From positions 41,331 to 105,330 of the IMG/VR virus record IMGVR_UViG_3300044491_002068: a stretch of DNA of 64,000 nucleotides. One strand, written 5' to 3'. Positions 5,157-63,721 of the stretch are shown here, piece after piece. The DNA is from a virus. Below the pieces are notes generated by a model that saw only the letters and a program-made list of their open reading frames with translations, was not told the DNA's origin and ran no database searches. Numbering within the stretch: the stretch's first letter is position 1; every line of letters starts with the position of its first letter. The position numbers were made by a program, and so were the translations under genes.

Positions 5157-5656
5157 TCCTCAGCCTCAACATCGTCACCGTAACCAGCGTAATCAAGAAT
5201 CTTGAGAGCCACAGACTCCAAGTGCGGATCAACACCGTAAAACGCACGAATAGCGTCAGGTAACGGACGATCAGTGTTGGTCATCTCCATAACAACCGGA
5301 GACGCAAACGTAATCGCATTACCGTTATCGTCTAAAACTAACTCGTCGTTGTAGTAAATGCCGGTAACAGTCTGGCCAACAACGTAGCACGAAAACTTGA
5401 TGGAATCAAGTTCGTCAGTCTTTCGGTTCGTGGCATTACGACGCCACGACTTCAACTGCTCATTAGTAATATTGGGTGAGAACCTAACAGTCACACCCTT
5501 ACGCTCCGGCACAGGCATCTCAATTTCGGGACGAGTAACTTCCTTAGAAATCTCTTCCTTCAACTGATCTAGAACGGTAAGCCTACCGCCAGTCTTACGC
5601 TTCGGAGTTACCTCGTCAGCACTTGCTACTTCAATAATTTCGTTTTCGTCACTCAT
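5141..5656 (-). CDS. Tail assembly chaperone (gpG-like)
   Basis: Position upstream of the TMP; ends EDPTKG* with an overlapping -1 ORF. Confidence 0.75.
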   Translation of the reverse strand: MSDENEIIEVASADEVTPKRKTGGRLTVLDQLKEEISKEVTRPEIEMPVPERKGVTVRFSPNITNEQLKSWRRNATNRKTDELDSIKFSCYVVGQTVTGIYYNDELVLDDNGNAITFASPVVMEMTNTDRPLPDAIRAFYGVDPHLESVALKILDYAGYGDDVEAEDPTKG

Positions 5657-5704: not shown

Positions 5705-6454
5705 TTAATCGGCTAGCGCTTCCCAAGTGCGCTTACCAACAACGCCGTCCACAGTCAGCCCCTCATCCTTCTGAAACTGACACACAGCATTATAGGTAAC
5801 CTTGCCAAAAACCCCGTCAATACCGGAACTAGTCTTAGGGCGCTTAGACAACTTGTACCCATTCTTATCCAGCAATTTTTGTAAAAACTCCACTACTACG
5901 CCACGGTCACCACGGCGCAATGTAGTGTCAAAACAAGCGGAAATGAACTTAAGAACGCCAGCCTGTTCTGACTTGACAGAAGCCGCACGAGGTATCTTAA
6001 CCTCACCCTTAACCGGGAACCACTCCATCTTTGTTCCGCTAACCTTGCACGGTTGATGATGCCACCACTCAGAAGAAACTGTCTTAACAATACCATATTC
6101 TGCGGCAATAGCATTAATTTCAGAAGTAGACAAAGTTTTATCCATCTGACGGAAATCTACAGCATACCCGTATCCTTCAAAACTGGGCTGAGACATATGA
6201 TACGACCCCTGAAACCCTGCACTGTTTCTGCGGTCAGGATTAGCGGCCAAATTAAAACCACGCTTACGAGACTTGTAGCCGTCATACAAATACTTCTGCT
6301 GCTGATACGACCTTACTCCAGAACTCACACGCACACGATGACCCTTGGCCAAATTAGTGATACGTGGGTCGTTGAAGAACGCCTCAAGTCGTGCCTTGAA
6401 CTTAGGATGAAGGTCTTTCACATTAACGTGATTGCCTGTCGTCGGAATACTCAT
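5705..6454 (-). CDS. Endolysin: M15/VanY-type Zn peptidase plus C-terminal peptidoglycan-binding domain
   Basis: SGVRSYQQQ..LY, SYH, AVD and EWWH motifs; LRRGDRG..V..LQ..L...IDGVFG...FQ..GL.VDGVVG..TW resembles PG_binding_1. Confidence 0.85.
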   Translation of the reverse strand: MSIPTTGNHVNVKDLHPKFKARLEAFFNDPRITNLAKGHRVRVSSGVRSYQQQKYLYDGYKSRKRGFNLAANPDRRNSAGFQGSYHMSQPSFEGYGYAVDFRQMDKTLSTSEINAIAAEYGIVKTVSSEWWHHQPCKVSGTKMEWFPVKGEVKIPRAASVKSEQAGVLKFISACFDTTLRRGDRGVVVEFLQKLLDKNGYKLSKRPKTSSGIDGVFGKVTYNAVCQFQKDEGLTVDGVVGKRTWEALAD

Positions 6455-8688: not shown

Positions 8689-9558
8689 CTATATCGTAGA
8701 AGATTTAAATGGAATCCCATACGTGGGCAGTACATCTTCCATCCAGCCCTGAGAACTATTCAAAGCCAGCGCTTCTGAAAGATTCTTAGGTGACTTATCA
8801 TCAGCAGGCGCAGGATCATACCCAAACTCGTAAATATAGTTTCCATCTGTAAACAGATCGCCTGCACGCACCCTCTGCTCAATGATTCTATAACGGCCAC
8901 GCATCGGACCTTCTCCATGCTCCTGAGCATACGACCTAGACGGCGTAACCCAGTCACCCGAATTGATAGCATCAACACCTTCCTCAGGCACCGCACGATA
9001 CATGATCACTTCGGCATCCGGATTGCCACGGGCCGCAGATATAATCGAAAATAGTTCTCTATCTCGTCGGGCGTCTGCGGGATCACCAGAACCGTACAAC
9101 CGCATTCCCATTGGAGAATAAACATCTTCAGGATATATTGCACTTAAATCATGTAATGCTGCACCAGTGTCTCGTGTAGGAGCAGAGTGGAGGCCACGGT
9201 AATCCTCGATAGTAGGTCCCTTATCGACAGTACCTAAAGTTGTAGTAATATTTCCCATTGAATCGCCAATGGTACCCAAACGATCACCAATAGAAAGGTT
9301 TTCAGTTCTCCACGTCTGAGAATACGAAACGTCATTACCATCAGCATCAACTAGACGTAACCCGTCTAACTGTGAAATATTAGTACCAGTAAGCAGATCA
9401 GAAATTTCTTCGCCAGCCGCATTAATGTACTTAGCGCCAGCAGGTCGTTCAAATGCCGTACCCTCCTGAACAACACCGTCATTATCGGCATCCTTAGGGT
9501 TACGATTATACGGCTCTGCCCGTAAACCACCCCATCGTGTAGCGCCACCAATAGCCAT
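8689..9558 (-). CDS. ADP-ribosyltransferase-like protein (ART-PolyVal type) with an N-terminal DADNDGVVQEGT.FERP module
   Basis: YRGLHSAP...MYRAVP...INSGDWVT.S.SYA..HG...V.A.DL...GN..YE.GY, an R-S/T-E ART-like pattern. Confidence 0.55.
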   Translation of the reverse strand: MAIGGATRWGGLRAEPYNRNPKDADNDGVVQEGTAFERPAGAKYINAAGEEISDLLTGTNISQLDGLRLVDADGNDVSYSQTWRTENLSIGDRLGTIGDSMGNITTTLGTVDKGPTIEDYRGLHSAPTRDTGAALHDLSAIYPEDVYSPMGMRLYGSGDPADARRDRELFSIISAARGNPDAEVIMYRAVPEEGVDAINSGDWVTPSRSYAQEHGEGPMRGRYRIIEQRVRAGDLFTDGNYIYEFGYDPAPADDKSPKNLSEALALNSSQGWMEDVLPTYGIPFKSSTI

Positions 9559-9570
9559 ACTACTATCCTA

Positions 9571-10443
9571 TCATGCAGACGGAGTTACTTCAAGGCTGCT
9601 AGCCGAATATGCTCCAGTACCCGCAGAGTTTAGCGCTGCTACTCTGAACTGATATCCTACACCATTAGTTAGACCAGTAACCGTGTAAAACCCCTGAGTA
9701 GAGGATGTATCGGCTACAGCAGTCGTCCACGTAGCACCTGAATCGGTACTCTGCTGAATAACGTAACCAGTAATATTATGGACGCCGCCATTCCATGTAG
9801 ACTCATTCCAATTCAGCACCACTTCAGTATTGCTAGCCACAGCAACCAAACTAGTCGGTGCATTCGCAGTAACAGGCATCTTTGTAACAGTAACTTCACT
9901 GCTCTGCTGAATACCTAACGGATCAACGTCAACAACTTCTTCAAGTGACAAATCGTAAGCAATATATGCGCCTGCCAACAATCGCTCACCCTTGATTAAA
10001 GTTAAATCTGAAAACTCTTCTCTAATTGTACCCTCATCAATTTTCGGGTAACACGGAACAGACGAATCATACCTAGACAGCGACGGACCGTCCATCAACG
10101 CTTCACGAACCACCGTTGTCAAGTTGTCACGCTGCTCAGTTACCGTCTCAGCACCAGACGCACGAGTCCACACATATGTGCGCATCTCGTAAGTTACACG
10201 AAAATTAGGGTCAGCATCCGGCTCATAATCAGTCCGAGTAACAGAACGTGTGTTGATTACCATAGTAATAATCGTTGGCCAAGCATCCAGCGCAAATGGC
10301 TCGTAACTCAAGTAACGACGTGGATCAGGTAACTGAGAACTGCTCAAATTCCAATAGTTTCTATACGTAATCAAACGAGGAGGCATATCATTAGCCAAAT
10401 AATTTGACACATAGTTTTTTGCTAATCTAGGACCCGACATCAT
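9571..10443 (-). CDS. Tail terminator / neck protein with a C-terminal fibronectin type III domain
   Basis: Position in the neck block; the C-terminus P..L.A...V.L.W...ITGY.IQ.S.D.G.TW...YTVTGLTNG..YQFRVAA.N.AG.G..S is FN3-like. Confidence 0.7.
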   Translation of the reverse strand: MMSGPRLAKNYVSNYLANDMPPRLITYRNYWNLSSSQLPDPRRYLSYEPFALDAWPTIITMVINTRSVTRTDYEPDADPNFRVTYEMRTYVWTRASGAETVTEQRDNLTTVVREALMDGPSLSRYDSSVPCYPKIDEGTIREEFSDLTLIKGERLLAGAYIAYDLSLEEVVDVDPLGIQQSSEVTVTKMPVTANAPTSLVAVASNTEVVLNWNESTWNGGVHNITGYVIQQSTDSGATWTTAVADTSSTQGFYTVTGLTNGVGYQFRVAALNSAGTGAYSASSLEVTPSA

Positions 10444-11839: not shown

Positions 11840-12331
11840 TTACTCATCTCCCATAGGGAAAAAGAAACTCCCATCTAACAACATCATACCAATGACCGAA
11901 TACCCGATAATATCCATGTAGGTATCCTCTAACGCCTCATTTTTTGCAGAAGCGCCAGACGCCAACAAGTTCTCTAGACGAGCAACTTTATCGTGAAGGC
12001 GCAGAATCAGACCTTTATGCGAAAATCTGGCAATATTTTCTGGACCGTAGTCTCGCTGCTTGTCGCACAAAGTATTAGCCACAAACACCTGATCCATTGA
12101 AGGATTTGCATTTAGAGACATGCACGCAAGTTGCGACCACAACGACGAACTAGTCAACTCTTCAGTACCCAGAAAATAAGTTTCGATTAGCATATCTACA
12201 TGCTCACGGATATCTCTAGTTATATCTTCAGACTTTACAAGGGGAGCCATTTCCCACACGAACTTTGTATGGATATGGGCTGAGGACTCCCAAGTCTTTG
12301 ATAGTTGGTCAGTTACCACGTTGACCTCCAA
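11840..12331 (-). CDS. Nucleotide-modification-associated (DUF1599/Nmad1-like) protein
   Basis: KQ.DYG..NI....GL..R..DK..RL.NL....NE.LEDT..DI.GY motif. Confidence 0.75.
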   Translation of the reverse strand: MEVNVVTDQLSKTWESSAHIHTKFVWEMAPLVKSEDITRDIREHVDMLIETYFLGTEELTSSSLWSQLACMSLNANPSMDQVFVANTLCDKQRDYGPENIARFSHKGLILRLHDKVARLENLLASGASAKNEALEDTYMDIIGYSVIGMMLLDGSFFFPMGDE

Positions 12332-12614
12332 CGGCGTGGGAAATCATGACCTTCAGCATGTAAAACATCCAGAATGTTCCGGTTACCGCAAACGCTTGAC
12401 CATAGCCGATTCCCGGCTCAAAGATGTCTAAATTTGGCCAAGCAGAATTCACTGCCATGTTTGAAAGCATCACAGAAAGTGCTGTCATTCCATTAAAAAT
12501 ACCAAAGACAAAAATGCCGTTAAGTAATGACAGTGCTGGGCCCATGCGATCAGGTTTACTTTCTTGAGTGAGTTTACCGAGAATTGTTTCCCAGTCGTTT
12601 CTATCGTTGTTCAT
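12309..12614 (-). CDS. Hypothetical membrane protein
   Basis: Two hydrophobic segments; coupled to its neighbours. Confidence 0.6.
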   Translation of the reverse strand: MNNDRNDWETILGKLTQESKPDRMGPALSLLNGIFVFGIFNGMTALSVMLSNMAVNSAWPNLDIFEPGIGYGQAFAVTGTFWMFYMLKVMISHAVGGQRGN

Positions 12615-12990
12615 TTTTCTCCTTAACTATTTGATGAATTCGCTGACGAGACAAACCGTAAGCCTTGGCAATTTCAGAAAGCGACGAGCCTTTGGAATAT
12701 GCGACACGGATTTTGTTGTTGCGTAGAACAACCAACGCATGTGATTGGGGCCCCGGTCTCAATGGCCCCCAGTCCCAAGTCGGTATACTTGCTAGTAGCC
12801 GTACCCTATCATCTGACAGTGCATTCTGTCTGTATCTTGTACGCATATAACTGACCCAGTTACCCAAGTTAATTTCTTCACCAGAGTCTAAGAACTCTAT
12901 GTGCCCACTAGGAACTGCTGCGTCGCCATACCGCTGCTGATACTGTACTAGGGCACTATAGTGCTTCTTCCATCGTGCGTTATGGTTCAT
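12601..12990 (-). CDS. Helicase-associated (HA) domain plus sigma-region-4-like HTH regulator
   Basis: W...Y.AL..Y....G...VP....LG.WV...R..Y....LS..R...L is HA-like; SLSEIAK.YGLSRQRI.QI is an HTH. Leaderless promoter TTGACA-N17-TAACAT-N6-ATG at 12991-13025. Confidence 0.75.
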   Translation of the reverse strand: MNHNARWKKHYSALVQYQQRYGDAAVPSGHIEFLDSGEEINLGNWVSYMRTRYRQNALSDDRVRLLASIPTWDWGPLRPGPQSHALVVLRNNKIRVAYSKGSSLSEIAKAYGLSRQRIHQIVKEKNEQR

Positions 12991-13540: not shown

Positions 13541-13595
13541 TAATCTATACCCCTAACTTGCGCCAAAACGCAACTCTCTTAACTATAATACCAAA

Positions 13596-14108
13596 TCACC
13601 CGAGCAGAGAATCTCCGGGCTTCCATGCGCAACCAGTAAGTCCACCTGTCTGAAGTGCCTTGAGAGTACGAAGTATTTCATCAACGTTTCGACCAGTATC
13701 CAAATCGTTCACAGTCAAAGAACGAATCATTCCATCTTCGTCTAAGATGAACGTGGCACGCAAAGCGACATTTTCCCACTCATCATCAACACCAATCATT
13801 CTAGCCAAAGACAGTCCTGTATCGGCGCAAAGATTATGACGGATACCAGAAATCATAGCATTTTGGTTCTTCCACGCTAACTTGCAATACTCATTGTCCC
13901 CACTAAAACCAAGAACAGTTACGCCTTCATCAACAAGGCGATCCATCTCGGCAATTTCAGTGGGACAAATGAAAGTAAAGTCCTTAGGGTAGAAATAAAT
14001 TACACTCCACCCACCTAGAATGTCATCTAGGCAAATATCAACAATGTTGTTATCCCTATCAATGGACTTAACTCCAAAAGGCGGGAACGGTTCTGCTACT
14101 CCAATCAT
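13596..14108 (-). CDS. ahpC: Typical 2-Cys peroxiredoxin
   Basis: FYPKDFTFICPTE, RATFI.D, GRNVDE.LR...ALQ; leaderless promoter TTGACA-N17-TATCAT-N6-ATG at 14109-14143. Confidence 0.92.
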   Translation of the reverse strand: MIGVAEPFPPFGVKSIDRDNNIVDICLDDILGGWSVIYFYPKDFTFICPTEIAEMDRLVDEGVTVLGFSGDNEYCKLAWKNQNAMISGIRHNLCADTGLSLARMIGVDDEWENVALRATFILDEDGMIRSLTVNDLDTGRNVDEILRTLKALQTGGLTGCAWKPGDSLLG

Positions 14109-20041: not shown

Positions 20042-20592
20042 TACAACCCTCCAACTACTTTCAAAATTTGAGTAATAGCGGTAGTATCTTTCGTGGTTTC
20101 AGCAGACTTCAACAACGCATAAACTGCTTTAATGTCATCAACATAGGAGTCCGGTATATCGTCAGGGTCAACGTCTGGATTAGTTTCTAAGTCTTCACGT
20201 AAATCTGTGAACGCCTGAATAAGCCTACTTATCTGAGCAAACGAAACCAAGCCCGGATTAGCCGTGGGAAACATAGTGATATATGTTTGCAAATCTGCTT
20301 CAGATAAAGAATCAATATGCTTTTCCATCTTTTCCGACTCAGCATTATACTCTTTAATATCAGTTAACATAGAGTCATACTGATCTTCAGAAATCTCGGA
20401 AGCGTCAGGAAAAAAATGAAGAAGACGCTCGTCAGTGTAAATAGGGACATCGAAATCCCTCAACAACTCAAATTGCTCTACAATCTCTCGTGCCTCGTCT
20501 TCCCAACCACTGCGAGCAGTGAACTCTGCGGTTCTTTCATCAGACAACTTCAAAATAATAGCAGACTTTCCTTTTAGCAGAAAATATTTCAT
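20041..20592 (-). CDS. Hypothetical acidic protein (candidate immunity or partner of the giant protein)
   Basis: Translationally coupled downstream of the kinase-tipped giant ORF. Confidence 0.6.
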   Translation of the reverse strand: MKYFLLKGKSAIILKLSDERTAEFTARSGWEDEAREIVEQFELLRDFDVPIYTDERLLHFFPDASEISEDQYDSMLTDIKEYNAESEKMEKHIDSLSEADLQTYITMFPTANPGLVSFAQISRLIQAFTDLREDLETNPDVDPDDIPDSYVDDIKAVYALLKSAETTKDTTAITQILKVVGGL

Positions 20593-47960: not shown

Positions 47961-48016
47961 AAATCTATTTTACTAGCCCCCTTGACTGTATGCCACCGTT
48001 CTCATACAATACCCTC

Positions 48017-48997
48017 ATGGACAAAGATAAACTTTTAGAAGACGCCGTAGCGCAAATTGAAAAGCAGTTTGGTGCTGGAAGCATCATGCGGCTTGGGGAC
48101 AACGCCTCCATGAAGATCGAAACCGTTTCAACCGGATCAATCGCTTTAGACTTGGCCCTAGGTGTGGGTGGATTACCTAAGGGACGAGTAACAGAAATTT
48201 ACGGACCAGAGTCATCTGGCAAGACCACTATCGCCCTGCACGTTATCGCAGAAGCACAGAAGCGTGGAGGAAGGTGCGCATTCATTGACGCAGAGCACGC
48301 ACTAGACCCAATATACGCAAAGGCAATTGGATGCGATATCGACAACCTTCTTGTTTCCCAGCCAGACACTGGCGAGCAGGCGCTCACAATTACCAACCAA
48401 CTTATCGCTTCAGGTGCGCTAGATGTCGTAGTCGTTGACTCTGTTGCCGCATTGACCCCTCGTGCAGAAATCGAAGGCGAAATGGGAGACAGCCATGTTG
48501 GCTTACACGCCCGTCTAATGTCGCAGGCAATGCGAAAGATTGTCGGAAACCTAAACAACTCAAAGACCGTTCTGATCATGATCAACCAGTTGCGAGAAAA
48601 GATTGGCGTAATGTTCGGTTCACCAGAAGTGACAACAGGTGGAAAGGCTCTAAAGTTCTACGCATCAGTCCGAATGGATATTCGCAGAATTGAGACACTC
48701 AAAGACAAGGATAACGGAGAAGCATCCGGCAACAAAACCCGTGTCAAGGTAGTCAAGAACAAGGTAGCCCCACCTTTCCGACAGGCAGAATTTGAAATTG
48801 CTTACGGTGAGGGGATTAGCAGAACTGGTGACATTGTAGATATTGCCGTAGAGATGAAGATCATCGACAAGAAGGGGGCATGGTACGCCTACAAGGGTGA
48901 GAACATCGGGCAGGGAAGGGCTAACACAAAAGTCTACTTGGATGAAAACACTGAAGTTAGAGAAGAAATTGCCGCCAAGATTTACGATTCGATTTGA
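48017..48997 (+). CDS. recA: RecA recombinase
   Basis: [41 protein letters not shown]; leaderless promoter TTGACT-N17-TACAAT-N6-ATG (47982-48016). Confidence 0.97.
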
Positions 48998-57070: not shown

Positions 57071-57153
57071 TGACATAGCAGATTTGCTAAACGCACCGAA
57101 CTGTGGTATACTGGCTGACAGCAGTAAACAACTGTCAAAACAAAAGGAGCAAA

Positions 57154-57756
57154 ATGACCACAAACGAATACGCAGTTTTTCTTGACGTTGATGGAGTAAT
57201 CAACAGCCTAAACCACCTGTATCAAGGCGGAAAAGTTAAGTTTGACTACCACACACAGCCACACGTTGCAGGACAATACACTGTATGGGTTCCAGAATAC
57301 ATGGGACCCCTCGTACAAGCCATCGAAGCAAGTTCCGACCTGTACTGGCTTACCACATGGCGAGAGAAGGCCAACGAGCACATCTCACCAATCCTAAACA
57401 TCTCTTCCAGCACCAAGGTGATTGACGACGGCACCAATATTCGCACTGTATCGTGGAAGTACAACGCATGTCTAGACATCGCCAAGCAACTCAGCGAAGA
57501 CGGAAAGACCGTACTGTGGATCGAAGACTTCGGAGGACGCCACTACGACAAGCGACACAAGCAGTACTTGACCTATGTTGACACCGACGCACGCAATGAA
57601 GGAGTATTCCTCCCTCAGCACCTGCCAGCAGACTTCATGAGTCACATCATAAAGAATGGCGGATACACCGGCCCGACACACGTCGCCGCCCCCAACGAGA
57701 CTGGTAAGCCTAGCGCATACGCAATCTACCGTGACACACACGGGGTGACCGCCTGA
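57154..57756 (+). CDS. HAD-family phosphatase (Swiss-Army-knife type)
   Basis: FLDVDGV, W.TTW, WK, WIED. Confidence 0.75.
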   Translation: MTTNEYAVFLDVDGVINSLNHLYQGGKVKFDYHTQPHVAGQYTVWVPEYMGPLVQAIEASSDLYWLTTWREKANEHISPILNISSSTKVIDDGTNIRTVSWKYNACLDIAKQLSEDGKTVLWIEDFGGRHYDKRHKQYLTYVDTDARNEGVFLPQHLPADFMSHIIKNGGYTGPTHVAAPNETGKPSAYAIYRDTHGVTA

Positions 57757-58436
57757 TGACAAACGAACTATCAGTACTATCAGGAGGATTTGTCCGACTA
57801 GATGCCGTCAACGCCGACGACCTCAGCGTAGTGAACGCCGCACGAGTAAGTTTTGGGAAAAAGTCAGACACAATGACAGACGCAGACGACGGACTCGTAG
57901 GATTCCTGATGCGAGAAAAGCATGGAACACCATTCGAACACAACTTCTTCAGGTTCCACGTAAAGGCACCAATATTTGTAGTCAGAGAATGGTTCAGGCA
58001 CCGCATCGGATGGTCATACAACGAATACTCTGGCAGATACAGCGAAATCCCCACAGAAGCATACCTCCCCACAGGAGAGCAAATGCGAACCCAAACAGGG
58101 AAACCCGGAGCATACACGTTTGAACCAATGGAAAACGGTCAGTTCTCACAAGACAGAATCAAACTGTCCTACATGCAATCATTCGGCGCATACGAAAAAC
58201 TCCTAGAAGAAGGAGTAGCAAAAGAAGTAGCACGGATGGTACTACCAGTAGCGACATACACCGAATTTTACGCCACCACAAACGCACGGGCACTAATGAA
58301 CTTTATCAGTCTCCGAGGAGACCAAACCGCACAATGGGAAATCAGGCAATACTCAAACGCCCTAGAATACTTCCTATCAGAAAACATGCCCGCAACATAC
58401 AGACACTTTAAGAACAACGAAAATCAAGCACCCTGA
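57756..58436 (+). CDS. thyX: Flavin-dependent thymidylate synthase
   Basis: NAARVSF, HGTPFEH, REWFRHR..SYNEYSGRY, EVAR.VLP, AQWEIR. Confidence 0.96.
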   Translation: MTNELSVLSGGFVRLDAVNADDLSVVNAARVSFGKKSDTMTDADDGLVGFLMREKHGTPFEHNFFRFHVKAPIFVVREWFRHRIGWSYNEYSGRYSEIPTEAYLPTGEQMRTQTGKPGAYTFEPMENGQFSQDRIKLSYMQSFGAYEKLLEEGVAKEVARMVLPVATYTEFYATTNARALMNFISLRGDQTAQWEIRQYSNALEYFLSENMPATYRHFKNNENQAP

Positions 58437-58447
58437 AAGAGAGCAAA

Positions 58448-59314
58448 ATGAAATACAACCACAAAATTTTTTGGAACGATAAATACACAGGAGCCGAATA
58501 CGCATTCGACACCACCCGCAAAAGCGCAGAAATCGTGGAAGCAATCGGAACCCAAAACATTAGCGACCCCCAAGAACAAGTAGCCGAAGCCGAAAAGCAA
58601 ATAGGCTTAGCACTAACAAACGAATACTTCGACGCATTACAATACGGAACCCCGCTTTTCCTATCAGAAAGCAACGGATTCAAGTGGGACTACGGCATCT
58701 ACCAAATGGCCATCAACTCCACAGCAGGAGTAATGTCTGCAGTCCAGCACGCCCTAGACAACAACACCGTAGCAGGAAGCCTATCGTCAGGACTGCACCA
58801 CGCAAACCACGAACGGGGAATGGGATTCTGCACAGTCAACGGACTAGGAGTAGTCGCAAACTGGCTACAAAACCTTCACATCACCATCCTAGACTTCGAC
58901 GCACACTGCGGAGGAGGCACAGTAAGCATGATTCGGCACCACGGAATGCAAGACAGAGTTGAAGAGTACGACATCTCAACTAACAAGTTTGACGACTACG
59001 AAGAAGACAGTACCCACAACATCCGCATCGCAACAAACGACGCACAGTACTTAAAGACCGTAGATCAAACACTAGACGGCATCAAGCCCGACACAGAACT
59101 CGTATTGTACAATGCGGGAACAGACCCACATCCAAGAATTACACATGATGCACTAGCAGAACGGGACCGTACAGTATTCCAATGGGCAAAAGACAACAAC
59201 AAGCCCATCGCATACGTCCTAGCAGGCGGATACACCATGTCACAAACAATGGAAGAACTCGTTCAATCACACATCAACACCCTAGATGCCGCTGACAGCA
59301 CCATTCAATTGTGA
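58448..59314 (+). CDS. Histone-deacetylase-family (Zn-dependent) deacetylase
   Basis: GLHHA....GFC..N, ILDFDAH.G.GT, YNAG.DP, VLAGGY. Confidence 0.88.
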   Translation: MKYNHKIFWNDKYTGAEYAFDTTRKSAEIVEAIGTQNISDPQEQVAEAEKQIGLALTNEYFDALQYGTPLFLSESNGFKWDYGIYQMAINSTAGVMSAVQHALDNNTVAGSLSSGLHHANHERGMGFCTVNGLGVVANWLQNLHITILDFDAHCGGGTVSMIRHHGMQDRVEEYDISTNKFDDYEEDSTHNIRIATNDAQYLKTVDQTLDGIKPDTELVLYNAGTDPHPRITHDALAERDRTVFQWAKDNNKPIAYVLAGGYTMSQTMEELVQSHINTLDAADSTIQL

Positions 59315-59326
59315 TAAACTAAAAAC

Positions 59327-60292
59327 ATGAACGAAATCACAGTCATAGACAACTACGAATACAACGGTGAAAGAACAGACACCGCCGGATTCTACGAAAA
59401 ATATGGCTTCGCAGTTATCCCCAACGCAGTCCCCGACACGTCACTAGACATGTACGGGGATTGTTGGGATGCAAACTTCAACACCCCCGACAACCCCCAC
59501 TTCGTAGGCTGGGAAGACGACAAAGCATACATGCACGTCCCAGAACTAAAAGAAGTACTCTGCCACAAAGGCGTAAACGACTTCTTCAGAAAAATCGACA
59601 TCGCAGTAGCGCTACACGTAACAAAAACACGGATGAACGTTCAACACACAGGATGGCACCACGACGCAACCCACCCACACGAAATAGGCCCAAAAAACTA
59701 TGTAGGCGGACTCGTAGCATTAGGTGACTGCAACGAAACAAACGGCGCAATCGAAGTAATCCCCGGATCACACAAATGGGACCTCAACTACCGAGAACGA
59801 TACAGCAACCCAGACAAAAGCGGATTCATCCACGGAGACGAATTCGAAGAACACCGACAAAAAATAAACGCACCCATCGTACAAATCCACGCCCAAAAAG
59901 GCGACCTGCAAGTATGGCACGGACGATCCGTACACCGAGCATCACAACCAACAGACAACACTACACGCAGACCAGCAGTAGTAGCACACTGGTGCAACAG
60001 GCTCGTAGCCGAAGAAGAAGTAGAAAAAGCAGGAGGACACGTCCCCTACGACACAATGGCAGACGACCTACTCACAAACAAATCAAGATCAAACGAACAC
60101 TTCTTCCAACGATGGGGAGAAGACGGCGGATTCTATTACCCCAACTGCACCATCACACGCACATGGCTAAGCAGAACCCACCCAGAAGTACCATACGACA
60201 AAGTACTATGGGAAGAACTACCATCATACGGAATTTACCCCACAGACGGAGACCCAAACCTCCTACTCCCAGACGGCGGCGGACAATACTAA
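59327..60292 (+). CDS. PhyH-family 2OG-Fe(II) dioxygenase
   Basis: WHHD, VALGD....NGA..VIPGSH, GDL.VWHG..VH; leaderless CTGACA-N17-TAAACT-N6-ATG. Confidence 0.82.
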   Translation: MNEITVIDNYEYNGERTDTAGFYEKYGFAVIPNAVPDTSLDMYGDCWDANFNTPDNPHFVGWEDDKAYMHVPELKEVLCHKGVNDFFRKIDIAVALHVTKTRMNVQHTGWHHDATHPHEIGPKNYVGGLVALGDCNETNGAIEVIPGSHKWDLNYRERYSNPDKSGFIHGDEFEEHRQKINAPIVQIHAQKGDLQVWHGRSVHRASQPTDNTTRRPAVVAHWCNRLVAEEEVEKAGGHVPYDTMADDLLTNKSRSNEHFFQRWGEDGGFYYPNCTITRTWLSRTHPEVPYDKVLWEELPSYGIYPTDGDPNLLLPDGGGQY

Positions 60293-60300
60293 ACTCCGAC

Positions 60301-60912
60301 ATGCACACAGAAATAACACAACACCCACTAATACAACTCAACGCCTACACACGCACACTCACAGGAATCAACAACGAAAAAATTACACAACAAATACTCA
60401 ACGACTCCACACCAGTAGACCCAAACCTACAACTACACAACCACCACAACCCACACCACACCTACTACGAAGACGTACTACCCCCACGCACCCCCGAAAT
60501 AACACAACTAGAAAACGAAATAAAAACAACAATCGAAACAATAACCAACCAACAATACAAAATAACAGAACTCTGGTCAATCACAACACACCCCGGCCAA
60601 TCAATAATCACACACAACCACAAACTCAACACACACCTACACCCCGAAGAATACTACTCATTCGCATACTACCCTTACGCCCCAAAAGGTTCAAACCCGT
60701 TACAATTCCAAATCAACCACAGCAACACAATAGACCAAATAGTTAGCATCCCAGTCGAAACAGGAAAACTCATAATATTCAACTCGTACATAAACCACCA
60801 CACACAACGCCAACACAACAACGACATACGAATAAACATAAGCGGAAACCTGTCACCACAAACACCCAGAACAACACCAAACAACGACTGGACCCCATAC
60901 CACACCCGATAA
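60301..60912 (+). CDS. Putative 2OG-Fe(II) oxygenase
   Basis: W.....PG....H.H, S..YY, G.LIIF.S...H.......RI.IS.N. The true start is ATG 60301, not the track start at 59776. Confidence 0.7.
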   Translation: MHTEITQHPLIQLNAYTRTLTGINNEKITQQILNDSTPVDPNLQLHNHHNPHHTYYEDVLPPRTPEITQLENEIKTTIETITNQQYKITELWSITTHPGQSIITHNHKLNTHLHPEEYYSFAYYPYAPKGSNPLQFQINHSNTIDQIVSIPVETGKLIIFNSYINHHTQRQHNNDIRINISGNLSPQTPRTTPNNDWTPYHTR

Positions 60913-60949
60913 ATTTGCCAACCACAACAAAATATGGTAAAATAGCGGC

Positions 60950-61270
60950 ATGGAACCATACGGAACACTCCCAACCTACACAGACACAGTAGACTACCTC
61001 ACCGAAGCAAACCCAGAAGCCCTCTACGCAGACGGCCTAGAAGAAGCCTGCATCGGACACACCGAAATCTACAAAACACACCCACGAGGCGGAAAATATA
61101 AACTACCCCTCGCCGTATACAGCAAACAAAAAATAATTAAACTACTCATCGAACGAGACGGCATGACCAACGAAGAAGCCGAAGAATACGCAGAATACAA
61201 CATTTACAGCGCATACATGGGCGACCACACACCCCTCTACCTAGACGAAACATACCACGTCAACCTGTAA
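60950..61270 (+). CDS. Conserved phage hypothetical protein
   Basis: ADG.E.A.IG, VYS..KII..L...DGMT.EEA.EY..YNI..AY.G..TP; leaderless TTGCCA-N17-TAAAAT-N6-ATG. Confidence 0.75.
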   Translation: MEPYGTLPTYTDTVDYLTEANPEALYADGLEEACIGHTEIYKTHPRGGKYKLPLAVYSKQKIIKLLIERDGMTNEEAEEYAEYNIYSAYMGDHTPLYLDETYHVNL

Positions 61271-63157
61271 ATGAAAAAACTGTACCTAGACGGCACAAAA
61301 CTCGTCCTCAAAACACCCTACAACAAAGACGAAATAACAGCCCTAAAAACATCGTTCCCCAACGCCCGCTGGGACAAACTCAACAAACACTGGACACTAC
61401 CCCTCAACACCCTGAAACAAGCAATCATCTTCGCCAACTCATGGAACATAGACGTGGACGAAGAACTCATCCACCTACAACTACCCGACCACCCAATAGG
61501 CGAAACCACCATACGACTCGAAAAAAACATCCTAAAAATCAACGTCCCCTACGACACCCTACAAATCAGCGACCTCAAATCCATCCCCGGCATCAAATGG
61601 AACCCCCAACACAACCAATGGGAAACACCATACACAAACGTCCACGAACTCATCCAATGGGCAACCAAATACAACCACCCAATACCCCAACACATCCAAA
61701 CACAAGCACAAATCGAAACCAAAAAAGCACAACACGCCCAAGAACTCACACAAGCCACCGACGCAAACATAACCATACCCACACTCCAACTAGACCTCTA
61801 CCCATACCAAAAAGCAGGCGTACAATACGCCACCGAAAAACAACGCACCTTCATCGCAGACGAAATGGGCCTCGGCAAAAGCCTCCAAGCCCTCGCCACC
61901 ACAGAACACACCAACCAATACCCAGCCCTCATCGTATGCCCAACCAGCCTCACAGAAGACTGGAAAACAAAAATCGAACAAGCCCTACCACACCGCACCA
62001 CCCAAACCATCGAAGGCCGCAAAACCCCCAACATGACCGAAACCGACTACACCATAATCGGCTACCCCAACATACACACACAAAAACAACACCTCAACAA
62101 CCAAAACTACAACACCCTCATCCTAGACGAATCACACTACTGCAAAAACCCAGACGCCCAACGAACAAAAGCCGCCAAAAACCTAGCCAAAAACATCCCA
62201 AACACCGGCAACATCCTACTCCTCACCGGCACCCCCATCACCAACATGCCAGCAGAATACGCCCCACAACTAGAAATCCTAGGCCACATAGAACAATTCG
62301 GCGGCAAATGGAACTTCTACAAACGCTACTGCGGAGCATACCGAGACAACTGGGGACACTGGCAAACCCACGGAGCCACCAACCAACAAGAACTCCTACA
62401 AAAACTACAAACAATCTGCTACATCCGCAGAGAAAAACAACACGTCCTCCCCGACCTACCCCCAATCACATACAACACCATCCACACCACAATGGACAAA
62501 AAACACCGCACCATGTACAACCACGCCCTCAACGACCTCCAAGAATGGTACACCCAACAACAAGAACAACTCGCCATCCAACAAGGCAACAACCCAAACC
62601 AAGCCCGAATCCGAGCACACTACGCCACCCAAAACTACGAAAACCTCATCCAACTCACAGAACTCAGAAAAATCGCCGCCCTCAGCAAAATCACCCACGC
62701 CCTAGAATGGACAGAAAACGCAAACAACCAAGGACAAAAAATCGTCATAGCCGCCCACCACCGCCACATAGTACAAACCCTAGCAAACGAACTCAACGCC
62801 CCAATGATCATAGGCGGACAACCACCAAAAGACACCGAAAAAGCAAAACACCAATTCCAAAACAACCCCAACACCAAAAACATCATCATCTCAATAGACG
62901 CCGCCGCACACGGACACACCCTCACCACATCACACAACATGCTATTCATCGAAGCACCATGGACCCCCGCCAAATACCACCAAACATGCGCCCGAATCCA
63001 CAGAATAGGACAAACCCAACCAGCAACAATCCACAACCTCATAAACCCAAACACAATCGACACACACATCTACCAAACCCTACAAAACAAAACCCAAAAA
63101 ACACAACCAGCCATAACACCAACAGCCATCCAAAACATACTCAACACCAAACCCTGA
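61271..63157 (+). CDS. SNF2-family helicase with two N-terminal HARP-like repeats
   Basis: LYPYQ..G, ADEMGLGKS, LDESH, LTGTP..N, RIHRIGQ; duplicated PY....LK..P..W.....W..P. Confidence 0.88.
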   Translation: MKKLYLDGTKLVLKTPYNKDEITALKTSFPNARWDKLNKHWTLPLNTLKQAIIFANSWNIDVDEELIHLQLPDHPIGETTIRLEKNILKINVPYDTLQISDLKSIPGIKWNPQHNQWETPYTNVHELIQWATKYNHPIPQHIQTQAQIETKKAQHAQELTQATDANITIPTLQLDLYPYQKAGVQYATEKQRTFIADEMGLGKSLQALATTEHTNQYPALIVCPTSLTEDWKTKIEQALPHRTTQTIEGRKTPNMTETDYTIIGYPNIHTQKQHLNNQNYNTLILDESHYCKNPDAQRTKAAKNLAKNIPNTGNILLLTGTPITNMPAEYAPQLEILGHIEQFGGKWNFYKRYCGAYRDNWGHWQTHGATNQQELLQKLQTICYIRREKQHVLPDLPPITYNTIHTTMDKKHRTMYNHALNDLQEWYTQQQEQLAIQQGNNPNQARIRAHYATQNYENLIQLTELRKIAALSKITHALEWTENANNQGQKIVIAAHHRHIVQTLANELNAPMIIGGQPPKDTEKAKHQFQNNPNTKNIIISIDAAAHGHTLTTSHNMLFIEAPWTPAKYHQTCARIHRIGQTQPATIHNLINPNTIDTHIYQTLQNKTQKTQPAITPTAIQNILNTKP

Positions 63158-63252
63158 CATAACACAAACCGAACAACACCATAAAAATATAGCACACCAG
63201 CCCCAAGGGGGTTGATTCGGGGTCGAAAAGTTTGCGGGACTACCTCGGTTTG

Positions 63253-63283
63253 TCGAACAGGTGTTCGTCGAACGTATGTTCTG
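63253..63283. promoter_or_regulatory. Two tandem actinobacterial LexA (SOS) boxes
   Basis: TCGAACAGGTGTTCGT and TCGAACGTATGTTCTG versus the consensus TCGAAC-N4-GTTCGA. Confidence 0.75.
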
Positions 63284-63552
63284 TGGATAACTCTGTTGAT
63301 AACTCGGGTGTTCTGTGGATAACTCGGTCGTTTGACTGTGGATAAGTCCCGACTTGTCCACAAGTTGGCTGTGGATAACTTAACGATTTTTAGGTGCCGG
63401 TATTCCGTTACGAGTTCGGAGTTTTCCACAGGGTTTTCCACAGGGTTGTGGACAACTTCGGGTGGTTTTCTGTGGATAATGGCCTAGTTTTCCACAAGTT
63501 TTTGTGGATAACTTTAGTAGTTTTTACTAAACTGTGGATAAGTTGGGGATAA
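63282..63552. repeat. Array of 14 DnaA boxes (oriC-like or DnaA-titrating)
   Basis: 7x TGTGGATAA, 2x TTGTCCACA-type, 3x TTTTCCACA and 2 other one-mismatch boxes. Confidence 0.92.
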
Positions 63553-63721
63553 CGTGGACTGATGATCGGTAGCGGGTGTCCGTTTCGTTCGTCATTGCCT
63601 ACATAGTGCAGCCGATATGTGACAATACCGGAAGGGTCGCCGGTTCGGTGTCGGTTGCTCTTTCGGGTGTCCGTGTCGTCTCTGCCGATTGTCTCCCGCT
63701 ATGGCGAGTGTATGGCGAGTA

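Follow-up and report, generated by a model that had tools for sequence, protein, structure and literature searches.

A site cluster at the end of a phage contig

What is a dense cluster of predicted DnaA boxes, headed by two LexA-type operators, doing beside the replication genes of an uncultured phage? The question is raised by the window analyzed here, a stretch of 64,000 nucleotides that makes up the last 64 kb of a 105,330-bp contig (71% complete) and stops 450 bp 3' of the cluster, within a C+T-only repeat. The initial annotation, made from the letters alone, offered two answers, either a host-type replication origin gated by the SOS response or a decoy for host DnaA and LexA. We conclude that the locus is a true regulatory element of the phage, rather than a chromosome origin taken from a host, because the same predicted combination recurs in unrelated phages including coliphage T5. 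The explanation that we prefer, tentatively, is a module of the T5 type, placed at a border between genome compartments, on which host proteins would dock.

The locus follows the last gene of a replication and nucleotide operon, an SNF2-family helicase gene whose coding strand is nearly pure A+C. Further upstream is a phage RecA gene (47990-48997; Pfam RecA, 454 bits), so the phage does encode a RecA of its own as had been supposed. Among cultured phages, those of Arthrobacter, Gordonia, and Microbacterium come nearest, but protein identity is only about 30%, which is too distant for their annotation to be used. A megablast search of the last 3 kb against cultured phages returned no match, and a sensitive blastn search of the array against them returned short box-level matches only. 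No integrase was found in the record or in four relatives, all of which are incomplete and therefore a weak guide to lifestyle.

DnaA boxes and LexA-type operators form one array

Every DnaA and LexA site listed in the initial annotation was recovered at its position (Table 1). The 14 predicted DnaA boxes comprise seven perfect and seven near-perfect copies. The perfect box TGTGGATAA occurs seven times in the 64-kb window against 0.6 expected, a count reached by 0/100 shuffles. All seven window copies fall between 63282 and 63541, and they are also all those of the 105,330-bp record. With one mismatch allowed, TTWTCCACA had 40 matches in the window, 14 of them inside 63282-63552, and the array was the sole 500-bp bin with at least three boxes across the whole record. 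The near-perfect boxes are TTGTCCACA (63354 and 63447), TTTTCCACA (63422, 63434, and 63488), TTATCAACA (63294), and TTATCCCCA (63544). Twelve of the 14 boxes vary only at position 3, which is the degenerate position of the DnaA-box consensus.

Several boxes are closely spaced, with gaps of 2-4 bp (63282/63294, 63422/63434/63447, and 63533/63544); the gap is 3 bp at 63282/63294 and 63422/63434 and 2 bp at 63533/63544. The first two pairs form an inverted repeat, I1, whose arms (63281-63305 and 63419-63443) are 84% complementary and 113 nt apart. Tandem units with a 12-bp period also occur inside the array, and no iterons besides the DnaA boxes were found at the window phage locus.

The palindrome TCGAAC-N4-GTTC was found in the 64-kb window at 63253 and 63268 only, and the looser GAAC-N4-GTTC was confined to the same two sites. 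The second operator abuts the first DnaA box with zero gap or, if taken as a 16-mer, overlaps it by 2 nt. The DnaA array and the tandem palindromes are each unique within the 105-kb record. Among 27 LexA-type boxes of the phage family, the consensus was CGAAC-RTGT-GTTCG, with the flanking C in 27/27 and the flanking G in 26/27. The form CGAAC-N4-GTTCG, common to the window and the family, is what we take to be the published actinobacterial/Gram-positive LexA (SOS/Cheo) consensus. This family consensus and a WhiB gene carried by the phage bear out the earlier assignment of the sites to the DnaA and actinobacterial LexA types. On the best reading, they are sites for host DnaA and actinobacterial LexA and the host is an actinobacterium, whose DnaA and LexA would be the proteins that bind. 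A phage-encoded DnaA or LexA was considered as ligand and rejected, as neither was found in the 71%-complete record; the search there covered dnaA, the DnaA C-terminal domain, dnaN, and the lexA DNA-binding domain, none of which was found.

Table 1. Features of the locus, in window coordinates.
Feature	Position	Strand	Remarks
SNF2-family DNA helicase gene	61271..63157	+	Pfam SNF2-rel_dom 2.4e-31 and Helicase_C; PHROG 62 DNA helicase 5e-101
Start of gene-free region	63158..63252	+	Switch from A+C-rich to G+T-rich at ~63205
Tandem LexA-type operators TCGAACAGGTGTTCGT and TCGAACGTATGTTCTG	63253..63283		15 bp start to start, one base common
Predicted DnaA-box array, n=14	63282..63552		10 boxes TGTGGATAA-like on + strand, 4 inverted
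AT-rich palindrome TTTAGTA-GTTTT-TACTAAA	63513..63531		Between two boxes; most AT-rich 20-mer of the region
G+T-rich spacer	63573..63679	+	Direct repeat CGGGTGTCCGTnTCGT at 63573-63588 and 63664-63679
Tandem TATGGCGAGTG/TATGGCGAGTA motif, 11-bp period	63700..63721	+	Family-typical; marks right flank as phage DNA
C+T-only low-complexity tandem repeat, 2% A	63722..64000	+	Continues to contig end

Both flanks carry motifs of the phage family

A family-conserved motif, GAAAAGTTTGCGGGAC, lies at 63225-63240 on the left, and the AAAAATATGTCAC and GAAAAGT motifs come after the helicase stop codon in L002, L003, L005, L010, and L012 as well. On the right, L009 and L012 also have GGCGAG pairs 11-12 bp apart 3' of the locus. 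When the right flank was compared with the relatives by BLAST, no homology could be aligned, so homology on this side is based on short motifs. The C+T repeat is the probable cause of the assembly break, and similar low-complexity tracts lie beside arrays or at contig ends in L007, L175, and L024. An exact 30-mer of the right flank had no match in IMG/VR with which to extend the contig. One weak terminator-like hairpin was found at 63639-63655. A scan for sigma-70-like promoters on both strands of 62900-64000 found none, and actinobacterial promoters are poorly caught by such a scan. Rfam gave no match on the locus or on related modules, save one unrelated tRNA.

The LexA-DnaA junction recurs in other phages

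The exact junction TCGAAC-N4-GTTC followed directly by TGTGGATAA was found in 19 metagenome contigs. It also occurs six times in five IMG/VR contigs, each with 12-15 DnaA boxes and two LexA boxes and none with dnaA. By contrast, 596 Gb of bacterial genomes held two occurrences, which is about chance level by our estimate. At least three of the five IMG/VR contigs have a primase-helicase in common with the window phage (36-42% identity), and four of the five have a second protein in common with it (49-59% identity), which makes some of the junction phages distant relatives. In more distant phages, the arrays comprise 12-18 DnaA boxes, and LexA boxes are embedded in them.

Spacing is retained along with the sites. 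L175 at 9900-9955 matches window positions 63250-63305 at 45/56 bases, ungapped and with identical spacing. The zero-gap abutment of LexA and DnaA sites is found in several lineages, and box pairs keep gaps of 2-3 bp. Other arrangements also occur. In L024, three units of a DnaA pair plus a LexA box lie about 110 bp 5' of a TTGACA-17-TACAGT promoter and a small gene. In L155, L156, and L173, a TATAAT hexamer abuts the LexA box and a DnaA pair follows 15 bp downstream. The L134/L146 metagenome group has one LexA box and two DnaA boxes only. A promoter scan near the related arrays gave few matches. Kinship of L024, L068, and L084 with the window phage is not established, since the protein in common is a ribonucleotide reductase.

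Close relatives use the same slot differently

At the array position, DnaA boxes are absent from close relatives (59-90% helicase identity). LexA-type boxes do occupy the same slot in six of the eight relatives whose contig passes the helicase gene, with 1-7 per relative, and in L012 the slot holds about nine iterons plus LexA-type boxes. The contents therefore vary from LexA only (1 to 7), to LexA plus iterons (L012), to LexA plus DnaA (window phage), and such exchangeable content would suit a block assembled from any tight-binding proteins at hand. A tandem LexA arrangement like that of the window was found in L012 (20242-20275) and L175 (9903-9934). The initial annotation had named box clusters at the same position in related phages as a check. 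Close relatives did not have DnaA boxes there, and it was in other phages that the LexA-DnaA combination was found.

By reading of the sequence, the boxes in L002 and L005 seemingly lie between convergent genes, where no promoter is expected, which argues for action on the DNA itself. In L012, a conserved leader (about 150 nt) and then a small gene come after each module. Modules are paired around blocks of small genes, which span 4.7 kb in L175/G005, 8 kb in L012, and 3.2 kb in T5. PHROG and Pfam searches assigned almost no functions to the L012 right-arm genes or to the metagenome-contig genes.

Comparison with coliphage T5

The closest known counterpart of the locus is the first-step-transfer (FST)/injection stop signal (iss) repeat region of T5, to which the initial annotation made no reference. 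The T5 modules, IRC-spacer-IRD and IRD'-spacer-IRC', have DnaA-box pairs 3 bp apart inside inverted repeats (Davison 2020, bioRxiv 10.1101/866236), and the function ascribed to them is a hypothesis. Our search of the searchable literature found no binding or genetic test of the T5 module. In the T5 genome (NC_005859), the sequence at 9411, CTGTATAAATATACAG, is a perfect LexA box of the E. coli type, with TGGGGATAA-gtc-TGTTGATAA after it. A second CTGTATAAATATACAG box, at 6213, has DnaA boxes next to it at 6121 and 6194. The copy at 9411 is within the annotated iss, both copies are within the left terminal repeat, and the first module lies between divergent annotated promoters. The DnaA-box pairs are at 9437/9449 and 9498/9510.

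The two loci share DnaA boxes in pairs with gaps of about 3 bp, the placement of those pairs in inverted repeats, the identical variant boxes TTATCAACA and TTATCCCCA, and a large gene-free, repeat-rich setting. Each also has a host-type LexA operator beside a box pair, a component absent from the published T5 description. The T5 layout of two modules around a small-gene block is seen on this side only in the relatives L012 and G005. The loci differ in that T5 has about four boxes per module, compared with 14 in the one window array, and an inverted-repeat spacer of 52 bp instead of 113 nt (bioRxiv 10.1101/866236). Its LexA motif is CTGT-N8-ACAG, whereas that of the window is the actinobacterial CGAAC-N4-GTTCG, and T5 has neither the extreme strand bias nor the palindrome contrast described below. 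A terminal repeat, nicks, and two-step injection belong to T5, and the contig of the window phage, which stops 450 bp past the array, shows no sign of them. The sole indirect hint that the locus may lie at the inner end of a first-entering terminal repeat is the palindrome-poor right arm of G006 described below, a trait not seen in the shorter flanks of other relatives. The LexA motif follows the host phylum while the DnaA box stays constant, which makes the host proteins the likely ligands. The resemblance between the two loci may be convergent.

The locus ends an extreme strand bias

At four-fold degenerate sites of the SNF2 helicase gene, the frequency of G is 0.02 and that of T is 0.00, and such sites are 98-100% A+C across the 6 kb adjoining the locus. 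This bias stops at the locus in the window phage, L002, L009, and L012. The strand asymmetry is independent of gene orientation, with minus-strand genes T-rich and plus-strand genes A-rich on their own coding strand at four-fold sites. Beside the locus the bias is graded, and its polarity is as if DNA or RNA synthesis starts there and runs leftward. To the right of the locus, the bias drops to zero without reversal.

The collinear relative G006 (65-89% nucleotide identity) reaches 16.8 kb further right. In this genome, the locus marks a drop in the strand-specific A excess at neutral sites, from about 0.13 to about 0.01. The observed/expected ratio of 6-bp palindromes is 0.59 on the left (0.51-0.66 in 64 equal-sized windows) versus 0.18 in the 15.9-kb right arm, which is palindrome-poor, consists of small genes, and begins at the locus. 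Such an arm is evident in G006 alone, with a suggestion of one in L002; it is not seen in the short right flanks of L005, L009, and L010. In G004 and G005, the more palindrome-depleted side is the one with the replication genes. The T5 ratios are 0.83 and 0.78, with no contrast, and on the basis of this control we rejected the idea that palindrome depletion generally marks first-entering DNA of the T5 type. The strand bias is also unlikely to be an anti-restriction device, since, with strand composition corrected for, palindromes are not scarcer in the biased zone (0.53-0.56) than in other parts (0.6), and the G006 right arm reaches 0.18 without the bias.

These patterns suggest that the locus lies at a border between genome compartments. 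Because the right arm of the window phage is off the contig, we infer the right side of this border from G006.

A possible docking module for host proteins

The docking module that we tentatively favor would act in cis on two host proteins that are present before the phage DNA arrives. DnaA would occupy the 14 boxes, largely as close pairs, and LexA the two tandem operators. The module would sit between the replication operon and, by analogy with G006, an arm of small early-type genes. Once this stretch is inside the cell, LexA dimers and DnaA oligomers would bind it and form a large nucleoprotein block to hold or insulate the border. With this block in place, DNA entry could be paused, transcription across the border halted, or both, and release might come from early phage products or from LexA cleavage that host or phage RecA promotes. 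We expect a second array a few kb to the right of the one in the window. Such a barrier function would not by itself explain the leftward polarity of the adjoining strand bias. The module is probably not an oriC-type DnaA-dependent origin.

Alternative explanations

A replication origin is possible but doubtful as an alternative, and it is compatible with a docking module. Synthesis would run leftward from the gene-free region, unidirectionally or from an R-loop or D-loop, with the DnaA boxes aiding DNA opening or the loading of a helicase on the displaced strand and the LexA operators gating the start by SOS state. The locus adjoins genes for a primase-helicase, SSB, and the SNF2 helicase, and it ends a genome-wide asymmetry that does not depend on gene orientation. 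The 98-100% A+C polarity would indicate that the minus strand is often single-stranded and deaminated, as expected of leftward strand displacement, and deamination-skew theory is an established basis for inferring polarity in this way. In P1 oriR, DnaA boxes act as helpers, and in pBR322, a DnaA box loads DnaB on the displaced strand. The window is similar in having DnaA boxes by replication genes, and a unidirectional start would fit its strand bias, but it has far more boxes, no Rep gene or iterons, and relatives without DnaA boxes. The iterons in the L012 slot are also in keeping with an origin, as is the geometry of the box pairs, given that DnaA prefers pairs with 2-3 bp gaps (PMC11317965).

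However, DnaA cannot be the essential initiator, since the bias boundary is also present in close relatives that lack DnaA boxes altogether. The bias sign flips at the LexA/DnaA motif of L134/L146 with the polarity of an origin, but the flip coincides with convergent genes and may therefore follow the coding strand. The lack of reversal to the right of the locus also argues against an origin, as do the presence of two modules each in L012 and G005 and the failure to identify an initiator gene, with no Rep-like gene seen at 47-63 kb. In T5, the origins map mid-genome, away from the FST/iss modules (bioRxiv 10.1101/866236).

The 63513-63531 palindrome is the sole candidate unwinding patch, and a weak one. 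In the pattern that we used, a box is followed by a spacer of at most 16 bp, (.A.)x3, and then an AT-rich stretch (basal unwinding system [BUS], Pelliciari et al. 2021, PMC8287927). Read on the minus strand, the box at 63533 is followed by 3 nt and then TAG-TAA-AAA, which fits the loose (.A.)x3 pattern once, a match easily met by chance in an AT-rich patch. No counterpart was found in the related arrays examined. The AT-rich palindrome reported in the initial annotation is present, but its resemblance to a DnaA-trio comes down to this loose match, and no unwinding element or DnaA-trio run is convincing or common to the related arrays.

A promoter operator is, in our view, unlikely. In this case, LexA would repress the adjoining genes and DnaA would tune them by host replication state, with the other features incidental. 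Simple transcriptional control may suffice, as the composite sits at evident promoters in L024, where the units are upstream of the TTGACA-17-TACAGT promoter, and in the TATAAT-LexA-DnaA class (L155/L156/L173). The leader and small gene after each L012 module and the divergent promoters around the first T5 module agree with this. GIL01, CTXphi, and coliphage 186 tum are examples of phage switches under host LexA, and colicin operators have two overlapping SOS boxes that give tight repression. The window has in common with these the presence of host LexA operators in phage or plasmid DNA and the tandem overlapping boxes. It differs from them in that no promoter was detected at the locus, its LexA boxes come together with DnaA boxes, and relatives have up to seven LexA boxes per locus. 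LexA and DnaA are known to regulate uvrB jointly in E. coli (PMC6015884). Against an operator, promoter-like sites are absent from both strands of 62900-64000 and from the surroundings of most arrays, and the boxes of L002 and L005 seemingly lie between convergent genes. Furthermore, 14 DnaA and up to seven LexA boxes far exceed known operators, and the downstream genes of the window phage are off the contig.

We consider it quite unlikely that the locus is the decoy of the initial annotation, in which amplified copies would titrate DnaA, so that host initiation stops, and LexA, so that SOS is derepressed. The many predicted high-affinity sites, with all seven perfect boxes of the record, would suit this role. 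The same is true of the promoter-free position in some relatives and of the varying content among relatives, which would be expected if different arrays targeted different host proteins. In B. subtilis and E. coli, it is established that box clusters titrate DnaA (PMC3245932 and PMC12371093). Like datA and the B. subtilis clusters (Okumura et al. 2012, PMC3245932), the array groups high-affinity boxes outside an origin and could reduce the pool of free DnaA, especially at high copy number. It differs in being phage-borne, in having LexA operators in fixed register, and in its position at a genome border. A sponge needs neither fixed geometry nor a fixed position at such a border, yet the zero-gap LexA/DnaA abutment and the 2-3 bp pair gaps persist. 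The one LexA box and two DnaA boxes of L134/L146 are too few for titration.

Lastly, it is very improbable that the array is a host oriC fragment or an assembly chimera, a reading that its place 450 bp from a contig end in low-complexity repeat might invite and that is largely refuted by the absence of dnaA and dnaN from the whole record, of dnaA from the 16.8 kb past the orthologous locus in G006, and of any sign of a chimeric junction, given that the left-flank (GAAAAGT, tandem LexA) and right-flank (GGCGAG tandem, pyrimidine tract) features are common to relatives and that the LexA-DnaA junction occurs in phage contigs and at chance level in bacterial genomes. The host-type origin of the initial annotation is not supported, given the same lack of dnaA/dnaN linkage and chance-level occurrence in bacteria and the close relatives that have the same bias boundary without DnaA boxes. 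What the array has in common with oriC and its BUS (PMC8287927) is the dense consensus DnaA boxes, the tandem pairs, and one AT-rich 19-bp patch beside a tandem pair. The array is unlike them in dnaA/dnaN linkage and in a convincing DnaA-trio run, both of which it lacks, as well as in the bacterial rarity of the composite and the box-free close relatives.

Significance

It is already known that single LexA operators let phages sense the state of the host. DnaA boxes have also been described in the injection-stop region of T5 (bioRxiv 10.1101/866236). Our search of the searchable literature found no description of a fixed DnaA and LexA combination recurring across unrelated phages of different phyla. 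If the module gates entry, early transcription, or the start of replication, it would provide a simple signature for compartment borders in uncultured phages. Gating would also offer a testable handle on the T5 injection pause, which has been open for decades, and a natural high-affinity array for actinobacterial DnaA and LexA. The strand bias next to the locus suggests that replication or transcription proceeds in an unusual way.

A broader and more speculative proposal is that composite DnaA and LexA modules are widespread across host phyla and that large lytic phages use them to stage infection. [quoted passage not shown] For the actinophage lineage studied here, the border would also start leftward strand-displacing synthesis. 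If so, this synthesis would leave an extreme mutational footprint in a coding region, with 0% T and 2% G at four-fold sites, and two-step or gated genome entry would not be peculiar to T5.

An array of LexA-type operators and DnaA boxes in phage DNA

The window covers the final 64 kb of a 105,330-bp IMG/VR virus record, classed as linear with an estimated completeness of 71%. No credible gene was found in its last 843 bases, 3' of a gene encoding an SNF2-family helicase, and pattern scans confirmed all positions of DnaA boxes and operators in the initial annotation. The perfect box TGTGGATAA occurs seven times in the window against 0.6 expected, with all seven copies inside 260 bp, and 14 of the 40 window matches with at most one mismatch fall in the array, which is the sole 500-bp bin with three boxes in the whole record. 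Twelve of the 14 boxes are TTATCCACA except at position 3, the remaining two being TTATCAACA and TTATCCCCA. In the window, GAAC-N4-GTTC is limited to the two operator sites.

Coordinates of features at the array locus and of similar motifs and tracts in other phage contigs
Contig	Feature	Position	Sequence or composition
Window	SNF2-family helicase gene	61271-63157	
Window	Motif after short A+C-rich tail	63225-63240	GAAAAGTTTGCGGGAC
Window	Two tandem palindromes (operators)	63253-63283	TCGAACAGGTGTTCGT and TCGAACGTATGTTCTG
Window	14 DnaA boxes	63282-63552	
Window	Spacer	between DnaA boxes and tandem motif	G+T-rich
Window	Tandem GGCGAG motif	63700-63721	TATGGCGAGT
Window	Tandem repeat, up to contig end	63722-64000	C+T only
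L009	Tandem GGCGAG motif	12443-12466, 13574-13596	
L012	Tandem GGCGAG motif	12491-12509	
L007	Tract	12030-12157	CTCTCCGGCC repeats
L175	Tracts	5160-5400, 9500-9780	T-free A/G/C

The array is phage DNA, neither a host origin nor a chimera. To its left lies a module for replication and nucleotide metabolism, whose genes encode RecA, thymidine kinase, SSB, an HNH endonuclease, a primase-helicase, ThyX, a deacetylase-like protein, two oxygenases and the SNF2 helicase. Searches of the 105-kb record for dnaA, dnaN, a DnaA C-terminal domain and a LexA DNA-binding domain were negative. A WhiB gene, which marks actinobacteria and their phages, is present. Relatives share the first 100 bp 3' of the helicase gene and the tandem LexA-type boxes, and the GGCGAG tandem right of the array is found again in L009 and L012, therefore the array sits in a scaffold typical of the phage family. 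According to the initial annotation, dnaA/dnaN just beyond the window or a chimeric junction would point to a host oriC. G006, the record that contains L012, is collinear with the phage record (65-89% identity at the nucleotide level); it extends 16.8 kb past the orthologous locus and has no dnaA there or elsewhere. Both flanks have features common to relatives, and nothing pointed to a chimeric junction.

LexA-type boxes are conserved and DnaA boxes vary in the phage family

In IMG/VR the helicase recurs at twelve loci of close relatives (59-90% identity), none of them with DnaA boxes 3' of the gene. Among the eight relatives whose contig extends past it, six carry CGAAC-N4-GTTCG boxes in the corresponding place (L002, four; L003, seven; L005, one and a degenerate one; L006, at least three; L007, two; L012, five), and L009 and L010 have none there. 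The 27 boxes from the relatives and the window give the consensus CGAAC-RTGT-GTTCG, with flanking C and G essentially invariant; this is the LexA operator known from actinobacteria and Firmicutes. In G006 (102 kb), eight of ten GAAC-N4-GTTC sites fall in two modules 8 kb apart, and the second repeats the window's pair of operators with their 15-bp spacing. The family's conserved feature is therefore the LexA-type array; DnaA boxes are the lineage-specific occupant of a slot that varies in content and that in L012 contains approximately nine 26-bp iterons between LexA boxes.

Counting the window, eight of 13 contigs terminate within approximately 2 kb of the locus, which suggests that repeats or low-complexity sequence break the assemblies; the L007 contig terminates in a pyrimidine-rich tandem repeat. 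Long tracts composed of just two or three kinds of base adjoin arrays in several lineages and coincide with contig ends, and H-DNA or an R-loop-prone tract are possibilities. The tandem GGCGAG copies right of the locus lie 11-12 bp apart in three lineages. In L012, a homologous element of approximately 150 nt follows each LexA/iteron module (12560-12800 and 20290-20540) and precedes a small gene, with common blocks such as CCGCCGTAGCC...GGCTAC and CCCCGACT..TCGGCGCT. These elements had no match in an Rfam search and could be a structured leader or non-coding RNA.

The LexA-DnaA composite recurs in phages

The exact junction TCGAAC-N4-GTTC abutting TGTGGATAA was scanned for in public sequence collections and was present in 19 metagenome contigs. 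In eight of these, which make up one group, an A+C-rich region precedes one LexA box and two DnaA boxes; L137 and L147 combine 17-18 DnaA boxes with two LexA boxes, and in L136 a tandem pair of LexA boxes comes before the DnaA boxes. A phi29-like podovirus fragment (L139), which encodes a protein-primed PolB and the gp16 packaging ATPase, carries at 6357-6449 a LexA-type box and then four DnaA boxes in head-to-tail order, with 35 nt left to the contig end. This end might be the genome terminus, where the origin lies in such phages. In the group of L134 and L146, a lone GGCGAGAC is immediately upstream of the LexA box.

An IMG/VR scan permitting a gap of 0-20 bp gave six zero-gap matches. These are spread over five contigs, each with 12-15 DnaA boxes, two LexA boxes and no dnaA. 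At least three of the five share a primase-helicase with the window phage (36-42% identity), and four share a second protein (49-59%). In L175, one of the IMG/VR contigs, positions 9900-9955 match window positions 63250-63305 at 45 of 56 positions ungapped, and the two operators and the first box pair are spaced identically. The junction occurs twice in 596 Gb of bacterial genomes, about our own chance estimate, so that beyond chance-level occurrences it is absent from these genomes. The composite therefore arose in phages rather than by copying of a host origin. The idea that box clusters recur in related phages held for these more distant contigs but not for the twelve close relatives.

Plain DnaA-box arrays are common in IMG/VR, with at least 120 loci having three perfect boxes close together and a maximum of 21 boxes per 400 bp. 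A second composite class (L155, L156, L173, L153, L164, L162, L171) has the LexA-type box ATCGAACAAATGTTCGAA, a 13-17 bp gap and a DnaA-box pair; in some cases a TATAAT-like hexamer directly adjoins the LexA box, and the composite is present twice per genome, approximately 0.9 kb apart. In the array contig L024 (10790-11130), a unit of DnaA box pair and LexA-type box is repeated three times with a period of approximately 44 bp. About 110 bp past the units is a TTGACA-17-TACAGT promoter with a small gene, and the contig then terminates in a G-free tandem repeat.

Coliphage T5 has a counterpart

All of 25 T5-like phages have approximately eight DnaA or DnaA-like boxes, always as pairs 3 bp apart inside inverted repeats. 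The boxes lie where the left terminal repeat is untranslated and contains the injection stop signal, and Davison proposed that membrane-bound DnaA stops injection there; T5 origins are reported to map close to mid-genome (bioRxiv 10.1101/866236). That comparison makes no mention of LexA. In T5 (NC_005859) we found a perfect E. coli LexA box, CTGTATAAATATACAG, at 9411-9426, followed by TGGGGATAA-gtc-TGTTGATAA, and a second at 6213-6228 adjoining DnaA boxes at 6121 and 6194. Both lie within the terminal repeat, the 9411 copy within the annotated injection stop signal. The window array likewise has a LexA box beside DnaA boxes, box pairs spaced 3 bp within an inverted repeat, and the same two variant boxes. 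The LexA motif is of the E. coli type in T5 and of the actinobacterial type in the actinophage, whereas the DnaA box is unchanged, the pattern expected if host LexA and DnaA are the ligands.

A compositional border coincides with the locus

Plus-strand A+C rises steadily from approximately 57 kb to 0.75, and the bias ends at approximately 63205; L002, L009 and L012 have the same gradient and stop. The coding-strand bias across 57100-63205 is extreme; it increases over approximately 6 kb and ends sharply at the gene-free locus. Four-fold degenerate sites in the helicase gene have a G frequency of 0.02 and a T frequency of 0.00. Far from the locus, these sites are T-rich in minus-strand genes and A-rich or balanced in plus-strand genes, thus part of the bias follows the DNA strand and not the direction of transcription.

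In G006 the strand-specific component is approximately 0.13 in the left 86 kb versus approximately 0.01 in the right arm. The observed/expected ratio of 6-bp palindromes falls from 0.59 on the left (0.51-0.66 across 64 windows of equal size) to 0.39 in the biased zone and 0.18 in the right arm, which comprises 15.9 kb of small unknown genes and looks like DNA exposed to host restriction differently from the remaining genome. L005, L009 and L010, whose right flanks are short, do not show this contrast there, and neither does T5; G004 and G005 have stronger depletion on the side with replication genes.

Possible roles of the array

The reading that covers most of the facts, which we favor tentatively, is a cis-acting module of the T5 kind that docks host proteins at a compartment border. 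DnaA and LexA would bind the array, their complex would work as a barrier or gate, and the window phage would have a right arm like that of G006.

A replication origin, either of oriC type or another start of DNA synthesis at the border, is possible but on balance unlikely. The host-type oriC of the initial annotation is not supported, with no dnaA or dnaN in the record and no bacterial source for the composite. A loose rule for the basal unwinding system (box, spacer, three NAN triplets; PMC8287927) gave one match, beside the AT-rich palindrome, and nothing similar is common to related arrays. A synthesis start would account for the polarity and gradient of the strand bias, which may be linked to replication, and the minus strand resembles an often single-stranded strand. 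However, relatives with the same bias lack DnaA boxes, cases with two modules occur among relatives, the bias is not reversed on the right, and by the published account the T5 modules do not serve as origins (bioRxiv 10.1101/866236). The docking and origin readings are not mutually exclusive.

A plain promoter operator would suit L024 and the class combining TATAAT, LexA box and DnaA pair, but is improbable here, as a scan of the locus for sigma-70-like promoters found none and the boxes of L002 and L005 appear to be between convergent genes. A sponge titrating DnaA and LexA accounts for site numbers and variable content but leaves the fixed register of sites and the border position unexplained, making it quite improbable. 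An artefact (host oriC fragment or chimera) is extremely improbable given the phage flanks, the lack of dnaA and the chance-level composite in bacteria.

The DnaA boxes of the T5 injection-stop region are already published; no report of LexA operators in that region, of the actinophage arrays or of a cross-phylum composite was found in the searchable literature. The array and the composite are real, recurrent and testable.
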